The notes beneath the pieces were generated by a model. That model saw only the letters and a list, made by a program, of their open reading frames with translations, had not been told where the DNA came from and ran no database searches. From Lachnospiraceae bacterium (lineage in GTDB: Bacteria; Bacillota; Clostridia; Lachnospirales; Lachnospiraceae), in contig JAGOLM010000002.1 of the NCBI GenBank assembly GCA_017994075.1, positions 6,636 through 70,635 of the forward strand: a stretch of DNA of 64,000 nt. Direction: 5' to 3'. This document shows positions 5,487-15,091 of this stretch, one piece after another (the stretch's first letter is position 1; each line of letters begins with the position of its first letter). The position numbers were made by a program, and so were the translations under genes.

Positions 5487-6662
5487 TTAGGCAAAGCGGT
5501 ATGGTACATCGGCAAAGCTTATGGTGTCCATTTCTTCTAGCTTGACGTATTCTCCGTGTTCCAATCTCCTGCCATTATGATATGTTCCACTTTTTGAATT
5601 CATATCTTTTAAATAAAATCTTCCATTTTTTCTTTCTATTACTGAATGTGTCCTATTTATTTTTAGCGAATGTAACAAAGCATCTGACCTTTTTTTATCT
5701 TTACCTATTTTAAAGACTTTCTGGTCTATACAATAATCATTTTCTCCAGAGTTACCCTCATATATCAGTCTGCCTATAGCTTCATCTTTTTTATTATCAA
5801 GATTTTTACCTGTAATATCTCTTAATTGTGGGAAAAGTTCATATAATCTATCTAGTATCATTTCTATTTTTTCATTCAATTTACGCTTTATTACCTTAAT
5901 GGTTTCCTTAAAGACATCACATTTTTTATTTTTCTTCTGATCCTTTTCACCATCATAACTAACCTTATATATGCCAGCGGGTTCGGGTTCATTTTCATTA
6001 TTACTATCATTATCAAATTCCGGTATTATGGTTTTTCTATTTTTCTCAAAAGAATCTGTACTCGTTTCAATCATTTCCGCAGAAAAAGTATTTCTTATTA
6101 TTTTGTCTTCTATTTTCTCCGTTTTATCCATCTGATTCTTGATTTCTGATATTAGATCAGAGTATAAAAACCCCGGCTCCTGTATCATCTCATATAATTT
6201 ATAACAGATAAATGTTACCTCTTTGTTCCTATGATCAGTATTATTGATTAAATACTCTCCTATTGGAAGAAGTGCGATCCCATTATTGTTTTGAGGAAAA
6301 AAACATAGCCCTATTCCACTATCATTTTCCTTTTTTATAAAAACCGTATCCGGTTGCATAAGAATATGTTCTTCAGATATTAGATACTCCTGAATCTCTT
6401 CAACTGCAAGCTTAAGATATAAAAAGATCTTGTAAAGAATATCAATATTTATTCCCTCCTGAAGCAGGTACTCTTCTAGGGATCTCTGTCCGGTTATATC
6501 GTACCAGTACTGGATCTTTCCATCTTTCTCCACTGAATAAAATGGCAAAAGAGCACCGATGTTATTTTCCTTCATCATCTCTGTCTCATAATTTTCCGGA
6601 TATTTATCACCGTCCAGGATCATAAACCTTTTATTTTTACCTTTTTGATACTGTACCTTCAT
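5487..6662 (-). CDS. FHA-domain protein with N-terminal DUF6382-like domain (Tad-locus associated)
   Basis: C-terminal FHA fold pattern (IGKD...INRTHS...LKDMNSKSGTYHNG). N-terminus YETEMMKENNIGALLPF...YWYDITGQRSL resembles the domain found at the end of clostridial Tad loci. Confidence 0.75.
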   Translation of the reverse strand: MKVQYQKGKNKRFMILDGDKYPENYETEMMKENNIGALLPFYSVEKDGKIQYWYDITGQRSLEEYLLQEGINIDILYKIFLYLKLAVEEIQEYLISEEHILMQPDTVFIKKENDSGIGLCFFPQNNNGIALLPIGEYLINNTDHRNKEVTFICYKLYEMIQEPGFLYSDLISEIKNQMDKTEKIEDKIIRNTFSAEMIETSTDSFEKNRKTIIPEFDNDSNNENEPEPAGIYKVSYDGEKDQKKNKKCDVFKETIKVIKRKLNEKIEMILDRLYELFPQLRDITGKNLDNKKDEAIGRLIYEGNSGENDYCIDQKVFKIGKDKKRSDALLHSLKINRTHSVIERKNGRFYLKDMNSKSGTYHNGRRLEHGEYVKLEEMDTISFADVPYRFA

Positions 6663-6677
6663 ACGTATTGTATCCTC

Positions 6678-6932
6678 CTATTCATTGCCTCTTTCTGATA
6701 CATCTTCTATTATTTCCTGCCCGGTTTTTGATAATCTGAATCTGTTCAGCGTATCAATATCCGAAACGTTTTTCTCTATTTCTGTTGCCGCTTCTGAATA
6801 AACTTGAAAGCTAAGAGTAAGCGCCATTCCTATTATTACAAGGATCATAGACATAACTCCGGCAGCTTCGACAGTATAACTGCCTTTGTGCTGTTTATAT
6901 ATTAGCCTATGCATCAAATATCTTATATTCAA
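6678..6932 (-). CDS. Small TadE-like minor pilin
   Basis: Class III signal HKG|SYTVEAAG (Glu at +5) followed by a hydrophobic helix. Confidence 0.75.
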   Translation of the reverse strand: MNIRYLMHRLIYKQHKGSYTVEAAGVMSMILVIIGMALTLSFQVYSEAATEIEKNVSDIDTLNRFRLSKTGQEIIEDVSERGNE

Positions 6933-7360
6933 CTTAAACTCCCTTTTCCCACGATCAGCATCAATAGACTCCCTGCCATAAGAAATGGAATATATGGGAT
7001 CCTGTCATCTTTTCTTTTTTTCTTGGCAATTATCATTATTCCTCCATATATTGCTAAAAATGTTGTTGATATCCAAATAAGAGCTATATTTCTCCAAAAT
7101 CCTAGAAATATTCCTGTAAGCATAAGCACCAGCCCATCTCCTATACCTATCTTTTCTCCGGTACTCTTACTAATTATTAATACAGCTACACCTGTTCCCA
7201 ATCCGCCAAGTACATCAAAAGTGCCTATTCTCTGAAATATCACATGCATCAGAACACCAATTAATGCAAAGGACAATACCAATATATCTCTGACCTTATG
7301 ACTTTTTATATCTTCTACACTTAATATCCCAAGCATTACTATTAGACTCAGACTTTCCAT
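6929..7360 (-). CDS. A24 prepilin peptidase (second copy)
   Basis: Both catalytic Asp motifs present (SVEDIK, IGIGDG). Start moved to ATG 7360 after AGGAG. Confidence 0.85.
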   Translation of the reverse strand: MESLSLIVMLGILSVEDIKSHKVRDILVLSFALIGVLMHVIFQRIGTFDVLGGLGTGVAVLIISKSTGEKIGIGDGLVLMLTGIFLGFWRNIALIWISTTFLAIYGGIMIIAKKKRKDDRIPYIPFLMAGSLLMLIVGKGSLS

Positions 7361-7374
7361 TTTATCTCCTTTTC

Positions 7375-8241
7375 CTACCTTCCCGAACATTTTGGACATG
7401 GTCTGTATTTCTTAATTGCTTCTTCAAGTGTGATCCGCTGCAATGTTCTTTTTAGACCACTGCATTTTAAACTGCTGTGATAAGTGTTTCCATATGTCGT
7501 GACGTAATAATAAGGTGAATGATCGTTTGCACACATCTCGCACTTGTAGTAGATACCTTGTTGATAATTTCTTACCTTTTTAATACTTTCTTTTGAAACT
7601 TCTTTTATAGATAATTTTAGATATGGACAAGTCTTATTTTGGTGATAGTCCTCTCCCTCCGGGGTAACATAGACATATTCCTTGTTGTCTTCCATATCCG
7701 GAGTCCATCCAACAAACCTCCTGGCTGATGCGACATCATGAACTTTAAAATACTGTTCTGATATCAAGTCTCCTACTATATTCATAGAAAATACGCAGTC
7801 CATATTTATTTCCGTGTCCGTTATCTCCGTTTTTGAAAAATCCAATCCTCCTAACCCACCTTTTATATAAGGAAGTGAAATTGTCCTTTTTTCAATTTCT
7901 TTTTTTGCAGAATTTATTAAGATTGTTTTTTGCAAAAATAAATTTGTTTTATCTTTATTTTCTTCATCACCAGGTATTTTCTCTGTGATTTTATCTGCCA
8001 TTTTTTCAATATTATCTCCAAACGCTGCTGCCTTCCTCGCGGATAACACCATGCTTTCCTTGATGACATATTGCGCTGTGATCAGCCTTATGTATATAAG
8101 AGCCGTTACGAATATAAACATAAATATTGAAAATGAAACTGCTGCCTCTATAGAATATGAAGCTTCTTTTTTTCTCAGGATGAATAACGGTGTCTCTTTT
8201 TTTATTACATAATGCCTAAAGATTGTCTGATCCTGACCCAA
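7375..8241 (-). CDS. tadE: TadE-family minor pilin with tandem C-terminal Cys/His (Zn-binding-like) domains
   Basis: KEA|SYSIEAAV leader plus TM helix. Two YVT..G..YH....C..L...Y..C..C units. TTG start after GAGAGG. Confidence 0.75.
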   Translation of the reverse strand: MGQDQTIFRHYVIKKETPLFILRKKEASYSIEAAVSFSIFMFIFVTALIYIRLITAQYVIKESMVLSARKAAAFGDNIEKMADKITEKIPGDEENKDKTNLFLQKTILINSAKKEIEKRTISLPYIKGGLGGLDFSKTEITDTEINMDCVFSMNIVGDLISEQYFKVHDVASARRFVGWTPDMEDNKEYVYVTPEGEDYHQNKTCPYLKLSIKEVSKESIKKVRNYQQGIYYKCEMCANDHSPYYYVTTYGNTYHSSLKCSGLKRTLQRITLEEAIKKYRPCPKCSGR

Positions 8242-8362
8242 ATTATAAATTTCCTCTCTTTTTTAAAAATTCTATTTTTTAACTACTTGCCTGGATATAT
8301 TTTCTACCCATTTGTGATAATGATATTCTCATCATCTATATAAAAAGAAACACCGTTATTCA
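8181..8362. repeat. 21-bp inverted repeat (one mismatch) enclosing 140 bp
   Basis: 8181-8201 TGAATAACGGTGTCTCTTTTT versus 8342-8362 AAAAAGAAACACCGTTATTCA. Confidence 0.9.
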
Positions 8363-9916
8363 CCCTGTTTTCTTCCTAAGGTAAGTCATCTCCTCGTCCC
8401 TTTGGTATGCATACCCTTTTATAAGTTCTGGCACATCCGTAAAAATCGGGAAAATAGTATCTGCCTTATACTCCATTCGGATTCTGGCGGAATATAATAG
8501 TCGATCCATTCTTATATTCTCCATTCCTTCTAATTGACTAAGGGAATTTTCTATAATATCCATTGTCCTATAGGCAGCAGTTTTCTCGGCTTTAAAATAC
8601 ATAAGAAATCTAATATAACTTTCATAGGATAATCCACTTTCTACCGATTTTGCCTGAGCTCCATCCCGAAGAAGCGTTGGAAGAGAAGTGAGCTCACTTG
8701 TCCATTCTGTTTGAGTTTTAATCAGCGGTACTTTTTTTCCATCCATAATCGCCCTAACATCCAGTACACTTTCCGCATAGGCCCATCCTGCAATTATCCC
8801 TGTCTTTACTGCTTCTATTAAAATTGGATTAGCTGATGCTCCTGCGATTGAAATTGCCAGTGAGCCTGCATCTCCATTCTTGATCGGATCTTTGAAAATA
8901 GCCAAAACATTTTCTGATTCTCTAAATATCAATATCTGATTTATTATTTTTTTTAGGTTCTCGCCATCAGACCCAGAACCTCCCAGTATATATTCCACCT
9001 CATATTTAAGACCTGTAGTCTCTTTTTCATCAGAATACGATGACATTCTATCCATGATATATTCATTAAACATGACTCGATTAATAGCACTTGGGGATTC
9101 TACCTCTTTGGTTCCCTTCTCTATTATTCTTTTCTCTAGAATATTGTCGGTGGACATCACCTTATCCGAAACTTTTTTCCCCTTTGGCAGAAAAAATGAA
9201 AGCGTTTCCTTACCCTTTTGATCCTTCGCCGTTTTCATCGGGTCCTCTGTGTCACCCCATTGCTTTTCGGTGTATTTATTTTTGCTTTGCTCTTGATCCG
9301 TCTTTTCAGAACTATTGGCAAGTTCACTTTTTCCATTTGGTTCTTTGCTTTTTGTTTTTTCTTTTTCTATATCTTGAAGAGCTTTTTCTCCATTTTCTAT
9401 GTCTTGCATCATAGTATCATCAGCTGTTGCTCCAGTTTTGCCTTTATTAACAAGGTTCATCAGTTCATCAACTGTCTTAAGCGGAATGGTTTCAAATTCT
9501 TTTTGAGCTGCAAGCCTGATAAATGCTGATCCGTTATTATCTGTAAGAAGTCCATAATCATCGATGCTGCATGATGACGGAATTGCTCGTATAAAATCTA
9601 TCCCATCATCTATATAAGGATTACCATTCTTTTCCATGGATTTTATAAGCTTCTTTTCAATTCCAGACAGATTATCACTATCCCGTCCAAGGGACATATC
9701 TACCGCCAATATCCCATAATCGTCCCAAAGATTTTTTTGATATATTGATTCAAGATAATCCCTTGATGTATGTGAAATGATCTTGGTCTCCTGTTTTATT
9801 GCAAGCTGCCTGATACCTTCCGCAAGAATAAAAACAACTGACAATGTAAAAAGCAGAATCATTGCCAGGAATATACTTACGCTCCCGCTTCTCTTTTTAT
9901 AGAAAATATTCATCAT
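8360..9916 (-). CDS. Large TadG-like pseudopilin (DUF5702-like)
   Basis: KRSG|SVSIFLAMILL leader. Motifs YEVEYILGG and RESENV...GIIAGWAYAES. Directly downstream of flp. Confidence 0.7.
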   Translation of the reverse strand: MMNIFYKKRSGSVSIFLAMILLFTLSVVFILAEGIRQLAIKQETKIISHTSRDYLESIYQKNLWDDYGILAVDMSLGRDSDNLSGIEKKLIKSMEKNGNPYIDDGIDFIRAIPSSCSIDDYGLLTDNNGSAFIRLAAQKEFETIPLKTVDELMNLVNKGKTGATADDTMMQDIENGEKALQDIEKEKTKSKEPNGKSELANSSEKTDQEQSKNKYTEKQWGDTEDPMKTAKDQKGKETLSFFLPKGKKVSDKVMSTDNILEKRIIEKGTKEVESPSAINRVMFNEYIMDRMSSYSDEKETTGLKYEVEYILGGSGSDGENLKKIINQILIFRESENVLAIFKDPIKNGDAGSLAISIAGASANPILIEAVKTGIIAGWAYAESVLDVRAIMDGKKVPLIKTQTEWTSELTSLPTLLRDGAQAKSVESGLSYESYIRFLMYFKAEKTAAYRTMDIIENSLSQLEGMENIRMDRLLYSARIRMEYKADTIFPIFTDVPELIKGYAYQRDEEMTYLRKKTG

Positions 9917-10098
9917 ACCTTGTTCGCATTATTTGACACTTTTTTAAATATATTGTTAACAAGATCTGTGATCTGCTCTTTAAAAATAAGGACCAAAGAA
10001 ATTGCTACAACCAACAAAAGCACTACCTCCAATACGCTAGCTCCACTTTCATCATCAATAAAATCTTTGATCTCATTTTTTAACTCAATTAGTTTCAT
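9913..10098 (-). CDS. flp: Flp1-like major pilin
   Basis: 61 aa. DDESG|ASVLEVVLLL (Gly at -1, Glu at +5) followed by a hydrophobic helix. GAGG RBS. Confidence 0.9.
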   Translation of the reverse strand: MKLIELKNEIKDFIDDESGASVLEVVLLLVVAISLVLIFKEQITDLVNNIFKKVSNNANKV

Positions 10099-10145
10099 AT
10101 ATATTGCATACCTCGCTTCTATAACTACTTTTCTATTTTTTTTAT

Positions 10146-10215
10146 TTCTTATTTAAAATTCTTTATTCAAAGTTCTTTATTTAAAACTTTTTATTTAAAG
10201 TCCTCTATTTTAAAA
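10146..10215. repeat. Five degenerate tandem ~14-bp units upstream of flp
   Basis: TTCTTATTTAAAA / TTCTTTATTCAAAG / TTCTTTATTTAAAA / CTTTTTATTTAAAG / TCCTCTATTTTAAAA. Confidence 0.75.
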
Positions 10216-10220
10216 AATTC

Positions 10221-11495
10221 TCATATCGATATTCCCCACATAGCAGGAACCATTAATACAACCATAACTATTCCAAGTATCCCCATAAGTGGAATTAATA
10301 GCCTCGTAGATATTTTCTCACCGGCCATTCTTATTCTTTGTCGCTCCCTGGTTTCTGCATCTATAGCTTCTCTTTCAAGTTTTGCCTGCATATCTTCAGT
10401 TCCAAGTCTAAGATTTTGGGTAAGTATGGTTGATAATTTTCTAAATACCCTGTCATCTCTGCCCATTCTTTCATATGCTTCCATTTCCGAGGTTCCGGAT
10501 TGTATCAGCCTGGTAATTTTTAAGACCGAGTCATATCCGGCTCTACATTCTGTCTTGATTTCTAATATCGATTCACTATAGTCTCTTGTTATTATTTCGA
10601 ATGACTTTTTTACTGTCATTCCGCAACTCACAAAAAGTGACAGTTTTCGAATTATTTCAGGATAATCACGTTCTAGGTCCTCATTTCTTTTCTTTTTCTT
10701 AGTCTTTAGAATCTCTTTTTCTCTAAGAGGCCATATAATTATAAGAAGTAATCCCAATGCACATATGATCTCTCCCCTTTTTTCCATTGGCTTCTTCCAA
10801 TTTATTTTTTTCCCATAGATAGTGTCAGGTAAGACAAATCTTTCTTTTTCTGGCACTGATCTATCCTTGTTTTTCACTAAGTTCTGCACTAGTTTTACGA
10901 AATCTTCTTGTTCATTTATGTCCGGCTTCATAACGACAAACGAAAAATTGTAAGTTTCCTCCATGTCATCGCAGGCAAGATTAACAATGGCATCAACCAT
11001 TTCCCTGTCTTCTATGGACTCATTTGTAATTACTCCCTTTGATGTCACCAGATCATCTCGACTAAAATTCCATGTAGCAGATACCTTCCCATCCCGATAT
11101 TCGCTTCTCATAACTACTGGTTTCTTTATTTTATCTATACTTTTATTTTTCCCCGGAAAAGTTCTGTCAATTTCCTTTTCCGCCTCTTTTATATATTTTT
11201 CCTTTTCCATTTTACTGAGCTTTCTATTGTTGATCTCAATTTCCAGAGAATCCTTTTCTTTTCCTCTGGCAACCTCTAGAACTTCTTTCCTGGAACCTTC
11301 GCCTGCTTCATTTCTGATTATTTCTCCATCATAGAAAACCCGATTTTGGAGATAGTCTACGGTGAATGTCAGGATTCCAATTATTTCTAGAGCAAAAATC
11401 ATTTTCCCTATAAAACTATTTTTAATAAAAGGATTGTTACTTTTCCTATATAAAAGAATCGTTACAAAAAAAATTATTAATGTTATCATATCCAC
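10221..11495 (-). CDS. tadC: TadC/T2SS-F platform protein with large extracytoplasmic insertion
   Basis: C-terminal T2SS-F segment (DYPEIIRKLSLFVSCGMTV...AGEKISTRLLIPL). About 190-aa soluble region between the TM segments. Confidence 0.8.
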   Translation of the reverse strand: MDMITLIIFFVTILLYRKSNNPFIKNSFIGKMIFALEIIGILTFTVDYLQNRVFYDGEIIRNEAGEGSRKEVLEVARGKEKDSLEIEINNRKLSKMEKEKYIKEAEKEIDRTFPGKNKSIDKIKKPVVMRSEYRDGKVSATWNFSRDDLVTSKGVITNESIEDREMVDAIVNLACDDMEETYNFSFVVMKPDINEQEDFVKLVQNLVKNKDRSVPEKERFVLPDTIYGKKINWKKPMEKRGEIICALGLLLIIIWPLREKEILKTKKKKRNEDLERDYPEIIRKLSLFVSCGMTVKKSFEIITRDYSESILEIKTECRAGYDSVLKITRLIQSGTSEMEAYERMGRDDRVFRKLSTILTQNLRLGTEDMQAKLEREAIDAETRERQRIRMAGEKISTRLLIPLMGILGIVMVVLMVPAMWGISI

Positions 11496-12254
11496 CTATA
11501 TCTTTTCAGTGATCTTCTTGCCCAACAAAAGGCAAAAAATATATGCGATCATACAAGCAGTCATGATTATGTGTCCCGCCGCACCAGCATACATAGGCAT
11601 AATAAATCCTGCTGCCGTAAGTCGAATGTATATAATGATAAATACTGGCATTATGCTCATTATTTTCATCTCCAGCCTCTTTTCCGCAGTAATGACATCG
11701 ATGTCCATCATGATCTCAATATTCTCGCTTATCTTATCTGCTGTATGACGTATGTTCCTGACATAATCACCGCCCATCCTTTTGGCATATATAAATATTT
11801 CAGCGAATTCTTTCACTTCATCCAATCCGATTTCATTTGAAAAATCCCAAAAAGCTTCTTCAATTGACCTATTCAGGCAAACTTCCGAATTGATCTTGTG
11901 AAGTTTATCTTTCATATAGGATTCATCCCCATACTGGATGCAAAGCTCTCTTTCTTCCTCGAGAAACGCCTTCTCTATTGATAGACCACCTGATAGAAAT
12001 GAGGCAACACCAATTAAGAATTCTCGATATTCTTCTCTAAATTTTCTGACGAAGTCTTCCCTTGCCTTTTTCTTCTGATATAAATTATTTATCACGTAAA
12101 TAATCGGAAATATGACCATTCCCCAAATGCTGTCATATACAATCCAAGACACCAGAATTGCCTCTGTAAAACTTATAAGCACTGTTTTTATTCTAGGTTG
12201 AATCCTGCTATTTCTGCCTTCCCTTTGTTCTGAAGTATGTCCTTTTTTACCCAT
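11496..12254 (-). CDS. tadB: TadB/T2SS-F platform protein
   Basis: LSGGLSIEKAF...EVKEFAEIFIYAKRMGGD...TAEKRLEMKIMSIMP. Lies directly downstream of cpaF. Confidence 0.85.
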   Translation of the reverse strand: MGKKGHTSEQREGRNSRIQPRIKTVLISFTEAILVSWIVYDSIWGMVIFPIIYVINNLYQKKKAREDFVRKFREEYREFLIGVASFLSGGLSIEKAFLEEERELCIQYGDESYMKDKLHKINSEVCLNRSIEEAFWDFSNEIGLDEVKEFAEIFIYAKRMGGDYVRNIRHTADKISENIEIMMDIDVITAEKRLEMKIMSIMPVFIIIYIRLTAAGFIMPMYAGAAGHIIMTACMIAYIFCLLLGKKITEKI

Positions 12255-13390
12255 TTGTTTCCTTCTAATTCGTACAGCACCCCTAGCTGTATATCACCAT
12301 TCATAATTCCTCTGACCTCGGCTATTTCTGTTACCCTTCTCTCTCCTGATGCCATTTTCTCAAGATGTACCATAATATCCAATCCAGAGGCAATCTGATT
12401 TTTTATAACTTCTATTGGAAGGTTCTCTGCCATAAGTGACATGCTAATAATTCTAGATATCATATCTTCTGTAGAATTGCCGTGACCGGTACTAAGTCCT
12501 CCATCGTGTCCTGTATTAAATGCCTGCAGCATCTCAAGAGTTTCTGCTCCTCTACATTCACCTACAATGATTCTGTCAGGTCGCATCCTAAGACTCGTTC
12601 GAACCAGATCTCTGATCGTTATCTCTAATCTACCTTCTAGATTTTTATTTCTTCCTTCTAATCTGACCAGATTTTGAACGCCTATGACTCTTAATTCAGC
12701 CGAATCTTCAATAGTTATCACTCGTTCATGTGGGGCGATAAATTCTGTAAGTGCATTTAAGAATGTTGTTTTGCCACTTGATGTTCCCCCTGAAATAAAA
12801 ATGTTGTATCTGCTAACAATTGCCTTTTTCAGGAAATCACTAATTTCTTCATTGATAGTACCAAGTGTCAACAGTTTTTCCATATCTATTGACTCTTTGG
12901 GGAATTTTCTAATGGATATCGTTCCTCCATCAACCGCTACCGGCGGTAATACGATATTCACTCTAGATCCATCCTCTAACCTTGTATCAACGATCGGAAC
13001 ACTTTCATTCACGATTTTATTTTGAGATGCCACAATTCTCTGTATGATATCTTCCAATTTACCCGGTTCTGAAAAATACTTATCAGACTTTTGTATTCTT
13101 CCGTTCTTTTCATAAAAGATATTTAAAGGACCATTGACCATTATTTCTGAAATGTTGTCATCATCCAAAAATTCCTGGATAATATCTAATTTTCGAAGCG
13201 AATAAAAAACATTTTTTTCAATTTGCTTTCTTCTCTCTATGCCAATAGATGTTTCCTTACCTTTTTGGCATATTATCTCTCTTATAGTGCTAAGTACTTC
13301 TCCATCACTTAGCTCTCTATCAAGGTCTAAATCCTTCTTTACCTGTTGACGGATGATCTCTACTATTTTTTCTTCTTGTAATTCTTCCAC
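12188..13390 (-). CDS. cpaF: CpaF/TadA pilus assembly ATPase
   Basis: Walker A GGTSSGKTT, Asp box TIEDSAEL, Walker B RPDRIIVGE, His box NTGHDGGLSTGH. Confidence 0.95.
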   Translation of the reverse strand: MEELQEEKIVEIIRQQVKKDLDLDRELSDGEVLSTIREIICQKGKETSIGIERRKQIEKNVFYSLRKLDIIQEFLDDDNISEIMVNGPLNIFYEKNGRIQKSDKYFSEPGKLEDIIQRIVASQNKIVNESVPIVDTRLEDGSRVNIVLPPVAVDGGTISIRKFPKESIDMEKLLTLGTINEEISDFLKKAIVSRYNIFISGGTSSGKTTFLNALTEFIAPHERVITIEDSAELRVIGVQNLVRLEGRNKNLEGRLEITIRDLVRTSLRMRPDRIIVGECRGAETLEMLQAFNTGHDGGLSTGHGNSTEDMISRIISMSLMAENLPIEVIKNQIASGLDIMVHLEKMASGERRVTEIAEVRGIMNGDIQLGVLYELEGNKWVKKDILQNKGKAEIAGFNLE

Positions 13391-13400
13391 TTTTTCTCAC

Positions 13401-14438
13401 CTATCCCACCGCTCTTACTACTCTGTCGTATCTCTTTACATTGTTTATCCACTTGCCTGGATTATCGTGCATAAGTTCAACTATATCGAATTTTCTTCCA
13501 AACTCTTTATCTCGATCCTCTAATCGAACCTCCTGAACAGATATGTTTAGCTTCTTTCTCTCCAGATAGTACTCATATTTTTTCATGCATTCTTCAGCGT
13601 ACTCATCATTTCCTTCCACAAGTATGATCTCGCTTAGCCCCTTCATGATTCCATTTATTTCATTTCCCATTTCTCCTATTACAATCACAACCACATCAAA
13701 AGGACTTTGTTTTAATTTTGCTGCCAGTTGGCTCCACTGCTCTTTTTCTATTTCCCACAGTTCTGCAGGATCCGACACCGGAGCCATATACGCCAGTCCA
13801 TCATAGAAATTGACATAATCTCCTAAAGATATTTCATACTCCGCTGTCTCTGTCGACAATGCATACATATAATCTGTAAGGTTATGGATCGGATCTTTTC
13901 CTACCACTTTATTTAAATAGGAATTTGCTTCGAGATCCACTAAGAGAACTTTTCCATTGTTTTTGCAAATATTACTGTAGACAAGTGAAAATGGAAGTTT
14001 CAGTCTGTTGTGACTAGGAGAATAAACACCTATCAGCTTACTGTCGCTTCCTGAACAATTCTTAGAAGCATTTTTTAATGTAAACCGCTCCAGTTTCTCC
14101 ATAAATGTTCTCATATCTTGAAATTTATATAGATGATTCATGCCTATCTCCGGAACATCATTGGCACCTAAGAGCTGTATATCCACCGATTTCCCCTTGC
14201 TTTTATCTTGGAGTTTAATTCCATCATCTCTATCACCATCTAGTAATTCATCATGGATATTCCCGATAAAATCTTTTGTCAATAGTCTTACATCAAAAGT
14301 GTTGCTTGATGAAATGTATCCATCTGTATCCGAGAAGCATGTGATATCATACTCGTCACTGTCTCCCATCAGGTATCCCACCAACGCTCTTAAGTAGCTG
14401 ACATCCATATCGCATATTAGCATCTTTGTTTTTTTCAT
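13401..14438 (-). CDS. TadZ/CpaE-like protein (receiver-like N-terminus, degenerate ParA/MinD-like domain)
   Basis: LICDMDVSY receiver-like start. IGVYSP motif with no GKT. VLLVDLE strand. Sits just upstream of cpaF. Start moved to ATG 14438 after GGAGGT. Confidence 0.65.
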   Translation of the reverse strand: MKKTKMLICDMDVSYLRALVGYLMGDSDEYDITCFSDTDGYISSSNTFDVRLLTKDFIGNIHDELLDGDRDDGIKLQDKSKGKSVDIQLLGANDVPEIGMNHLYKFQDMRTFMEKLERFTLKNASKNCSGSDSKLIGVYSPSHNRLKLPFSLVYSNICKNNGKVLLVDLEANSYLNKVVGKDPIHNLTDYMYALSTETAEYEISLGDYVNFYDGLAYMAPVSDPAELWEIEKEQWSQLAAKLKQSPFDVVVIVIGEMGNEINGIMKGLSEIILVEGNDEYAEECMKKYEYYLERKKLNISVQEVRLEDRDKEFGRKFDIVELMHDNPGKWINNVKRYDRVVRAVG

Positions 14439-14440
14439 TT

Positions 14441-14965
14441 TTACCTCCAAATCAATACAATAAGTTCTGTTAAAAAAGCGCCTATAAACATAAATGGTAC
14501 CATTGCTATTTTTCCCGACTCCGCCTCATCCCTGGGATAATGTATGATTTTCTTTTCAATTGATATTTGATAGATATAATTGCCTAACACATATATCCTA
14601 CGCATCAATTCCCCACGAAATATCATTACCGTCAGTGAATATGTCCCTGCTGTTATAAATATCATTCCTGTAAAAAGAACCGCCCATTCCCTTGGTACCA
14701 TTGAAGATATAACTGCAATCACTTTAATATCTCCGGCTCCCAATACTCTTGCTGCAAATAATATAAATAGAATTATGATCGGACATATGAGACTGATTAA
14801 CCATTCCTCAATCCCATTAATGTTTCCGGCTACTGCAGCTCTTATCAATGTCACTATCAGTCCTATCAGAATATATACATTTGGAATTCTTTTTTTCTTA
14901 AAATCAAATATTGTTGCCCCTGATAGGAATATCAGGATAAAAGCTATATCTATTTCATTCGGCAT
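14441..14965 (-). CDS. cpaA: A24 prepilin peptidase CpaA/TadV
   Basis: IFDFKKKRIPN and LGAGDIK catalytic Asp motifs. First gene of the Tad operon. Start at 14965 after GAGGAG. Confidence 0.88.
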   Translation of the reverse strand: MPNEIDIAFILIFLSGATIFDFKKKRIPNVYILIGLIVTLIRAAVAGNINGIEEWLISLICPIIILFILFAARVLGAGDIKVIAVISSMVPREWAVLFTGMIFITAGTYSLTVMIFRGELMRRIYVLGNYIYQISIEKKIIHYPRDEAESGKIAMVPFMFIGAFLTELIVLIWR

Positions 14966-15091
14966 TTTATCTCCTCTCATCGTGTAGAGATTATATTCTC
15001 CGTTTACCCTGATTTACATAGCACCTCGTGCAAGTTTCATTTTTGTTAAATATGCTGAAATTTATCTTTTTTGCGATTAATTTATTCTTTC

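Follow-up and report, generated by a model that had tools for sequence, protein, structure and literature searches.

A family-wide mRNA helix closing over the pseudopilin start region in the Tad/Flp pilus operon of Lachnospiraceae

A 64,000-nucleotide stretch of the genome of a Lachnospiraceae bacterium (GenBank assembly GCA_017994075.1, contig JAGOLM010000002.1, positions 6,636 to 70,635; this whole stretch is called the window here, and all coordinates refer to it) carries a monoderm-type Tad/Flp pilus operon on its minus strand, and within this operon an inverted repeat lies between the gene for a DUF5702 protein and the gene for a TadE-like pseudopilin. The DUF5702 gene (8360-9916, minus strand; 518 aa; Pfam PF18960, E = 8e-80) has its stop codon inside the upstream arm of the repeat, while the pseudopilin gene (7375-8241, minus strand; 288 aa) starts at a TTG and encodes an N-terminal prepilin-type segment followed by a Cys/His-rich (Zn-type) C-terminus. 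On the operon mRNA the two arms form a predicted helix that closes over the pseudopilin start region and that probably sets how much pseudopilin is made. As judged from the orthologous loci compared here, the inverted repeat is a family-wide Lachnospiraceae mRNA feature, found in about 100 species.

Read directly, the core of the repeat consists of two 21-nt arms (8181-8201 and 8342-8362) that match at 20 of 21 positions and enclose 140 bp, just as an earlier sequence-only reading of this stretch had described them; a repeat search extended the arms to 30 nt (8176-8205 and 8338-8367), with 27 of 30 positions complementary and 132 nt between them. That reading had given the single mismatch of the core as a U-G wobble, and wobbles also account for most mismatches of the full repeat, i.e., two are G·U on the mRNA strand, one is A·A and none is A·C. 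The 5' arm of the mRNA helix (CAGGGUGAAUAACGGUGUUUCUUUUUAUAU; 8338..8367, minus strand) holds the DUF5702 TGA stop (8362-8360), a Shine-Dalgarno (SD)-like AGGGUG and a vestigial GTG (8353-8351); the 21-nt core does begin at this stop, as had been reported, and the full arm opens 5 nt ahead of it on the mRNA. By alignment, the 5' arm in the window is homologous to the arm that carries the SD and start codon in orthologues. The 132-nt loop (8206..8337, minus strand), which is A-rich on the sense strand, contains the first 12 pseudopilin codons as well as both the current pseudopilin ribosome binding site (RBS), GAGAGG at 8258-8253, and the TTG start at 8241-8239. The 3' arm (AUAAAAAAAGAGACACCGUUAUUCAUCCUG; 8176..8205, minus strand) represents pseudopilin codons 13-22 (IKKETPLFIL, which includes the KETPLF that had been assigned to it) in the leader peptide, and between its end and Ser28, the residue that directly follows the predicted prepilin cleavage site (A27|SYSIEAAV), lie 15 nt (five codons).

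The GTG of the 5' arm opens a five-codon mini open reading frame (mini-ORF), GTG TTT CTT TTT ATA TAG (8336..8353, minus strand), that was recognized by sequence reading, TadE-frame translations and a start-codon survey. This GTG is a vestigial start, located where most orthologues begin the pseudopilin ORF, and the TAG closes the frame here. Translational bypass from the ATA-TAG of the 5' arm to the ATA of the 3' arm was considered and rejected, as the sister species has no stop after the ATA.

The sense strand of the region folded with an energy of -59.6 kcal/mol (z = -7.85; none of 200 shuffles folded as well) and the antisense strand with -42.4 kcal/mol (z = -4.05); the helix itself, with 30 bp, has a duplex energy of -39.9 kcal/mol. 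The strand-symmetric repeat score of the window was 22.5, as compared to maxima of 13 among 205 shuffled regions and 13.5 among 82 real control regions. A chance similarity, or a local duplication accident limited to this genome, would be favored by the AT-rich sequence, which lifts the background frequency of repeats, but the score and the fold z-score both stand against such an origin, and the survey of orthologues described below, in which the orthologous position carries a helix in about 100 species, refutes it; we consider its probability practically nil. Exact copies of a 12-nt core of the arms were found in the whole genome only in the two arms of this locus, and the four matches with one mismatch were fewer than those of a reversed-pattern control. 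Two nested outer inverted repeats surround the helix in the window, i.e., 8136-8150/8569-8583 (15 nt, 93%) and 8087-8105/8587-8605 (19 nt, 84%). Beyond the sister species this outer pairing was not conserved in other orthologues (mean score 8.6 vs. 8.3 for the null), and the outer repeats are probably a product of chance or specific to the lineage.

The pseudopilin gene was found in 191 of 201 family genomes, sampled one per genus, and in all 12 genomes of the window's genus. For loci from these own-genus and family genomes, the best ungapped inverted repeat upstream was scored without regard to strand (match +1, any mismatch -1.5, loop of 30-350 nt), and scores of 12.5-24 were obtained for 39 of 41 loci; shuffled regions (n = 205) averaged 9.1 and reached at most 13, and real controls from the same loci averaged 9.2 and reached at most 13.5. 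A second set of loci, retrieved with an 8-sequence alignment as query, comprised 80 loci from named Lachnospiraceae, including Roseburia, Agathobacter, Pseudobutyrivibrio, Lachnospira, Eubacterium oxidoreducens and BVAB1; 71 of these scored at least 13.5, and several of the nine lower-scoring loci carry helices rich in G·U. Once duplicates were removed, 101 distinct helices were available, with arms of 16-49 nt (median 26 nt) and loops of 46-242 nt (median 100 nt). The helix was present in the minimum-energy fold of the native region at all 100 of 100 loci, and the median duplex energy across orthologous loci was -43 kcal/mol. BVAB1 (CP049781.1), a vaginal bacterium with a complete 1.65-Mb genome, belongs to the window's genus and has the same helix, whose stem there measures 23 bp and whose loop measures 92 nt.

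The N-termini of 20 pseudopilin homologues from ten other Clostridia families showed no helix (scores of 12 or less, i.e., at background), which indicates that the helix belongs to the Lachnospiraceae version of the locus. A search of positions 7000-10500 against Rfam 15 returned four chance-level matches (E 0.8-4.3, far under the gathering scores), none of them on the helix, and a covariance model built from loop-trimmed hairpins missed real loci because the loops span so wide a range of lengths. Our literature searches found nothing that mentions DUF5702 and nothing that deals with invertons or with RNA structure at the tad loci of Lachnospiraceae. The helix is a previously undescribed, family-wide mRNA helix of a general kind that is already known; with no Rfam match and unusually clean covariation support, it is a candidate for a new RNA family.

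The sequences of the arms diverge widely among genera, yet the arms stay complementary. By itself, this divergence with kept complementarity fits an RNA helix and repeats homogenized by recombination alike. The sequence-only reading had suggested an alignment of orthologous loci for covariation between the arms, and we carried this out with 66 non-identical helices, anchored on the G(A/G)TG(T/C)(C/T)(T/C) core of the 5' arm and aligned without gaps. In the resulting 27-pair helix, 89.9% of the cells were standard pairs, as compared to 69.0 ± 0.6% in shuffles and 43-56% when the partner was slid by 1-3 columns; it weighs against our interpretation that the pairing itself set the register in which the 3' arm was taken, which somewhat inflates this percentage of paired cells. 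Changes on both sides occurred in 24 of the 27 pairs, cells with double changes numbered 400 as compared to 117 ± 9 expected, and the covariation score was 0.69 as compared to 0.27 for shuffles and 0.14-0.25 for the slid partner. RNAalifold, applied to the same alignment, predicted 23 pairs, 20 of them with compensatory changes.

These data also bear on the possibility that the helix is a functionless relic, e.g. a hairpin or an insertion resembling a miniature inverted-repeat transposable element at the 5' end of the pseudopilin gene. Extra codons would be tolerated at this position because leader peptides are cleaved off, and the loop sequence is indeed poorly conserved. A neutral remnant would not, however, hold approximately 90% pairing with compensatory changes in 20-24 pairs over more than 60 genera, nor would it give the strand bias reported next, and the confinement of the arm core to this locus in the genome argues against a repeat family. 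We regard a relic as most improbable.

If complementarity were a property of the DNA, a transition on either side of a Watson-Crick pair would produce G·T or A·C equally, and flipping of the segment would interconvert the two. On the sense strand, the mismatches of the first locus set comprised 84 G·U and 11 A·C (P = 4.5e-15) and those of the second set comprised 143 G·U and 13 A·C (P = 7e-29). This test, as well as the slid-partner control and the column-wise double changes, is independent of the pairing-based register. From the G·U bias, the compensatory pairs and the single orientation of the loop we conclude that selection maintains the complementarity at the RNA level, in the mRNA of the operon. 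At the level of comparative analysis, these data establish that there is a conserved and covarying helix, which is selected on the mRNA strand; they also make it very likely that it is an RNA helix selected for a post-transcriptional role in cis. The part of the sequence-only reading that proposed a long-range RNA stem thus stands as regards the existence and the selection of the stem, whereas the RNase III or coupling activity named with it is something we infer.

The other possibility named in the same reading was a DNA inversion switch. In this case a site-specific recombinase encoded elsewhere would flip the 132-140-bp segment; expression of the pseudopilin and of the genes downstream of it would be switched OFF, and the pilus tip would vary in phase. 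The flgB and cwpV switches of Clostridioides difficile, which depend on RecV and occur in both orientations, likewise have imperfect inverted repeats of about 21 bp that flank a 130-200-bp segment, located between a promoter-proximal region and the regulated coding sequence of a surface structure, and the 21-30-bp arms and the segment size at our locus resemble theirs. In silico flipping of the segment does remove the RBS and the TTG and bring a TAA in frame before KETPLF, as had been claimed; three tyrosine recombinases and one weak resolvase match are encoded in the genome, all on contigs other than that of the window; and concerted evolution of the repeats could also preserve the complementarity of the arms. 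Repeated flipping would, however, erase the sense-strand excess of G·U, and the orientation of the loop is constant over about 100 species, in most of which the leader ORF is open one way only. Ten independent assemblies of the species (JGI, ENA, Logan), i.e., those that encode an identical DUF5702 protein, all showed the same loop orientation, an identical 251-nt region and the 288-aa gene at the same spacing.

Further searches for traces of inversion point in the same direction or are neutral. The predicted product of the OFF state (248 aa, starting at Met41) has no database record, which is weak negative evidence, and the flipped junction had no match in JGI metagenome contigs, a scan that carries no weight since a native-junction control likewise gave none. 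On the gene strand, the loop contained no promoter-like site, and a scan of the region 7300-10300 yielded nothing that resembles a terminator. The observation that the window encodes no recombinase held for the whole contig in a domain search; given that enzymes of the RecV type work in trans, this speaks neither for nor against inversion. The locus differs from flgB and cwpV in its G·U-biased mismatches, its fixed orientation and a segment that is coding in most species. From these comparisons we conclude that the segment has a fixed orientation across the species and assemblies compared, and we judge an inversion switch to be very unlikely. For surveys of invertons this case calls for caution, since a 21-30-bp inverted repeat around a start codon mimics a phase-variation switch; an RNA helix can be told from a recombination site, without read data, by the strand bias that mismatches (G·U as opposed to A·C) show across orthologues.

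Among orthologues, the consensus 5' arm, AAGG-AGGTG-TATAA-GGTG-TCTCTT, comprises an SD, a 7-nt spacer, a GTG or ATG start and Ser-Leu codons. The consensus 3' arm, AAGAGACACC...GCACCT(C)C, is read as K-E-T-P-x-C-T and includes an anti-SD-like CACCUCC; the 3' arms of orthologues end 1-25 nt ahead of the prepilin cleavage motif (G/A)S-x-T-V-E-A-A. The first in-frame start lay inside the 5' arm at 54 of 101 loci, and at another 22 the frame was open from further upstream, so that at 76 of 101 loci the start is in or compatible with the 5' arm; the first possible start was outside the 5' arm at the other 25, i.e., in the loop (16), in the 3' arm (6) or beyond (3). The upstream ORF of at least 600 nt, in the position of DUF5702, ended a median of 11 nt before the first helix pair (interquartile range -21.5 to -6.5; n = 99). 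In most species the pseudopilin frame is open straight through the loop, which codes for a long, poorly conserved pseudopilin leader peptide.

Both the window and its sister species (L047/L059) depart from this majority pattern: the GTG of the arm is stopped after five codons, GAGAGG and TTG of the loop are used instead, and the DUF5702 stop has shifted into the 5' arm. The shift of the start to the TTG at 8241 shortens the pseudopilin leader peptide of the window to 27 residues. The arrangement in the window is a derived version that this species has in common with its sister. The description of the repeat as bracketing the RBS and start codon is true of the window, but most species hold both inside the 5' arm.

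The loop was A-rich on the sense strand at 87% of the loci; the loop of the window contains 43% A and 29% T. A second conserved element was observed in the loops of orthologues, i.e., a sense-strand motif AAATCTCTC(T/C) (e.g., L051, L053, L055, L037 and L041), which is absent from the loop of the window (8206-8337). Exact TCTCTC occurred in 47 of 101 loops as compared to 1.6 expected, usually 40-60 nt before the 3' arm. This pyrimidine motif, present on the sense strand only in 58 loops and on the antisense strand only in 10, is read as Ser-Leu in coding loops and does not covary with the arms; it is also kept upstream of the first possible start in L034, L108, L117 and L121.

As the sense GAGAGG of the window is the complement of the UCUCUC motif, we also considered whether the loop of the window is inverted relative to its orthologues. 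This was rejected: the loop has the same A-rich sense strand as most loci, the window itself shows its G·U mismatches on the sense strand, and manual reading of the flipped sequence showed that the flipped frame from the arm GTG stops after 9 codons. A 48-codon open TadE frame across the flipped loop was judged to be a composition effect of the T-rich strand. On the plus strand across the loop (8212-8343, ATG at 8212), about 43 codons are open, which would encode a product with many F, I and L residues; we judged this stretch to be a by-product of the T-rich antisense composition.

In about three quarters of the species the 5' arm doubles as the RBS and start codon of the pseudopilin, with the pattern GGAGGUG-N7-(A/G)UG-UCU-CUU, so that a closed helix would mask translation initiation; in most species it would bury the pseudopilin SD and start codon in a duplex of about 25 bp. 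The position of the upstream stop, a median of 11 nt before the helix, fits the idea of translational coupling. We propose that the start could be reached by two routes: a ribosome might initiate before the 3' arm, 46-242 nt further on, is transcribed, or a ribosome terminating on DUF5702 might melt the outer pairs, which contain the SD, and so couple the translation of the two genes. Ribosomes that pass through the 3' arm would keep the start open afterwards, while mRNAs with a closed helix would be silent for pseudopilin. Closed mRNAs would probably also be cut by RNase III, as the helix offers at least 20 bp of double-stranded RNA, and cuts within the arms would take away the start or sever the ORF. 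The net effect would be a low output of pseudopilin that is tied to the output of DUF5702. In the window, the helix would represent a ribosome-opened roadblock or a cleavage site across codons 13-22 and not an SD mask. That masking and coupling are the main activity of the helix is a tentative view, to which we give a little less than an even chance.

A related arrangement has been described for the icaR mRNA of Staphylococcus aureus (Ruiz de los Mozos et al. 2013, PMC3868564): its SD region is bound by a distant anti-SD within the transcript, a pairing that blocks the initiation complex and at the same time provides a double-stranded target for RNase III. Both cases concern a Firmicute mRNA in which the SD region is paired with a distant segment (for the helix reported here, in most orthologues). 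The icaR partner is a short UCCCCUG in the 3' untranslated region of a monocistronic mRNA, whereas the partner here measures 16-49 nt and lies 46-242 nt downstream in the leader-peptide codons of the same gene; moreover, the helix described here is located at an intercistronic junction, just past the upstream stop.

In the RNA phages MS2 and Qbeta, an RBS is locked in a long-range helix, as in the coupling of replicase to coat translation and in the control of the maturation gene by kinetic folding. As in these phages, the RBS here would be freed only while ribosomes translate the partner segment or before the partner is synthesized. The phage helices are shorter, and their partner is located upstream or in the preceding gene, whereas in our case the partner follows downstream within the same ORF, and the helix would be opened by a ribosome that terminates on the gene before it. 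The helix also resembles the RNase III stems that flank 16S and 23S rRNA and those of lambda and T7 mRNAs, which are long, near-perfect helices between segments about 100 nt or more apart and have a size suited to recognition by RNase III; unlike these stems, it overlaps a translation start and coding sequence, and it has no sequence relationship to them.

Some observations weigh against masking and coupling as the function of the helix. Since 25 of 101 species, the window among them, have their first possible start outside the 5' arm (in the loop, in the 3' arm or further on), masking of the SD cannot be universal, and retention of the helix where the start has left the arm makes it likely that a role independent of the start is part of the common function. 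To judge from these loci, a role of the helix alone, i.e., in processing, stability or as a roadblock, may be the common denominator. In addition, a helix of -40 kcal/mol would lose no more than its outermost pairs to a ribosome that terminates 11 nt upstream.

The helix might be mainly an RNase III processing or stability element and not a translational mask, a proposal that concerns its main activity and is not exclusive of masking. Cleavage of the stem would split the flp-DUF5702 part of the mRNA from the distal genes, give the parts differing half-lives and destroy the pseudopilin frame. Besides the retention of the helix in the 25 species with a start outside the 5' arm, its length (a median of 26 bp, range 16-49) and its few mismatches other than G·U would suit a double-stranded substrate; the genome encodes RNase III, as indicated by two Ribonucleas_3_3 domain matches (E = 1.8e-40 and 9e-26), and icaR shows that masking and cleavage can coexist. 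Processing leaves unexplained, however, why the SD and start codon fall within the 5' arm in about three quarters of the species and why the helix so regularly begins just past the upstream stop. As the main activity we consider it possible but unlikely.

It is tempting to extend masking and coupling to a 'kinetic lock', in which the long leader peptide would serve mainly as a spacer for a ribosome-gated, RNase III-sensitive helix, and pseudopilin synthesis would be possible only in the pioneer round of translation or when a ribosome that completes DUF5702 opens the helix, with destruction of all else. We find this extension rather doubtful. The conserved AAAUCUCUC loop motif could in that case be the docking site of a trans-acting factor, either a protein or a small RNA, that tunes the lock. 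If such a lock exists, the subunits of the tip complex would be fixed at roughly one-to-one and at very few per pilus, and the helix would represent a new class of intercistronic riboregulator, specific to the pilus operon of major gut commensals.

Apart from this extension, the helix offers a mutable handle on the dosing of a minor (probably tip or priming) pilin relative to DUF5702 and the major pilin. Lachnospiraceae, among them Roseburia, Agathobacter, Lachnospira, Eubacterium and the vaginal BVAB1 lineage, are dominant host-associated anaerobes, and we know of no study of their conserved Tad/Flp pilus operon.

In the window, whose genome is represented by a 1.66-Mb assembly of 126 contigs (95.5% complete), the operon is headed by a gene for an A24 prepilin peptidase (14441-14980; this gene and all those that follow are on the minus strand). 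Next are genes for a 349-aa protein with no Pfam match (13401-14450), a TadA-type ATPase (12188-13390), a membrane protein (11496-12254) and a T2SSF-type membrane protein (10221-11495). The pilin block begins with the gene for a Flp-type major pilin of 61 aa (9913-10098; Pfam Flp1_like, E = 2e-21) and continues with the DUF5702 and pseudopilin genes. Directly after the pseudopilin gene lies a second A24 prepilin peptidase gene (6929-7399), so that the operon has two, followed by genes for an 84-aa protein (6678-6932) and, at the operon end, a DUF6382-FHA protein (5487-6662).

A Pfam search with the TadE-like pseudopilin returned no match. Its C-terminus (7375-7680, minus strand) contains two Cys/His-rich modules, VY-x-T-x-x-G-x-x-YH...C...C-x-x-C, that are invariant across Lachnospiraceae, and the Cys/His columns were conserved in two orthologue alignments. 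The pseudopilin homologues of other Clostridia families have the N-terminal pilin part alone in common with it, and their C-termini differ.

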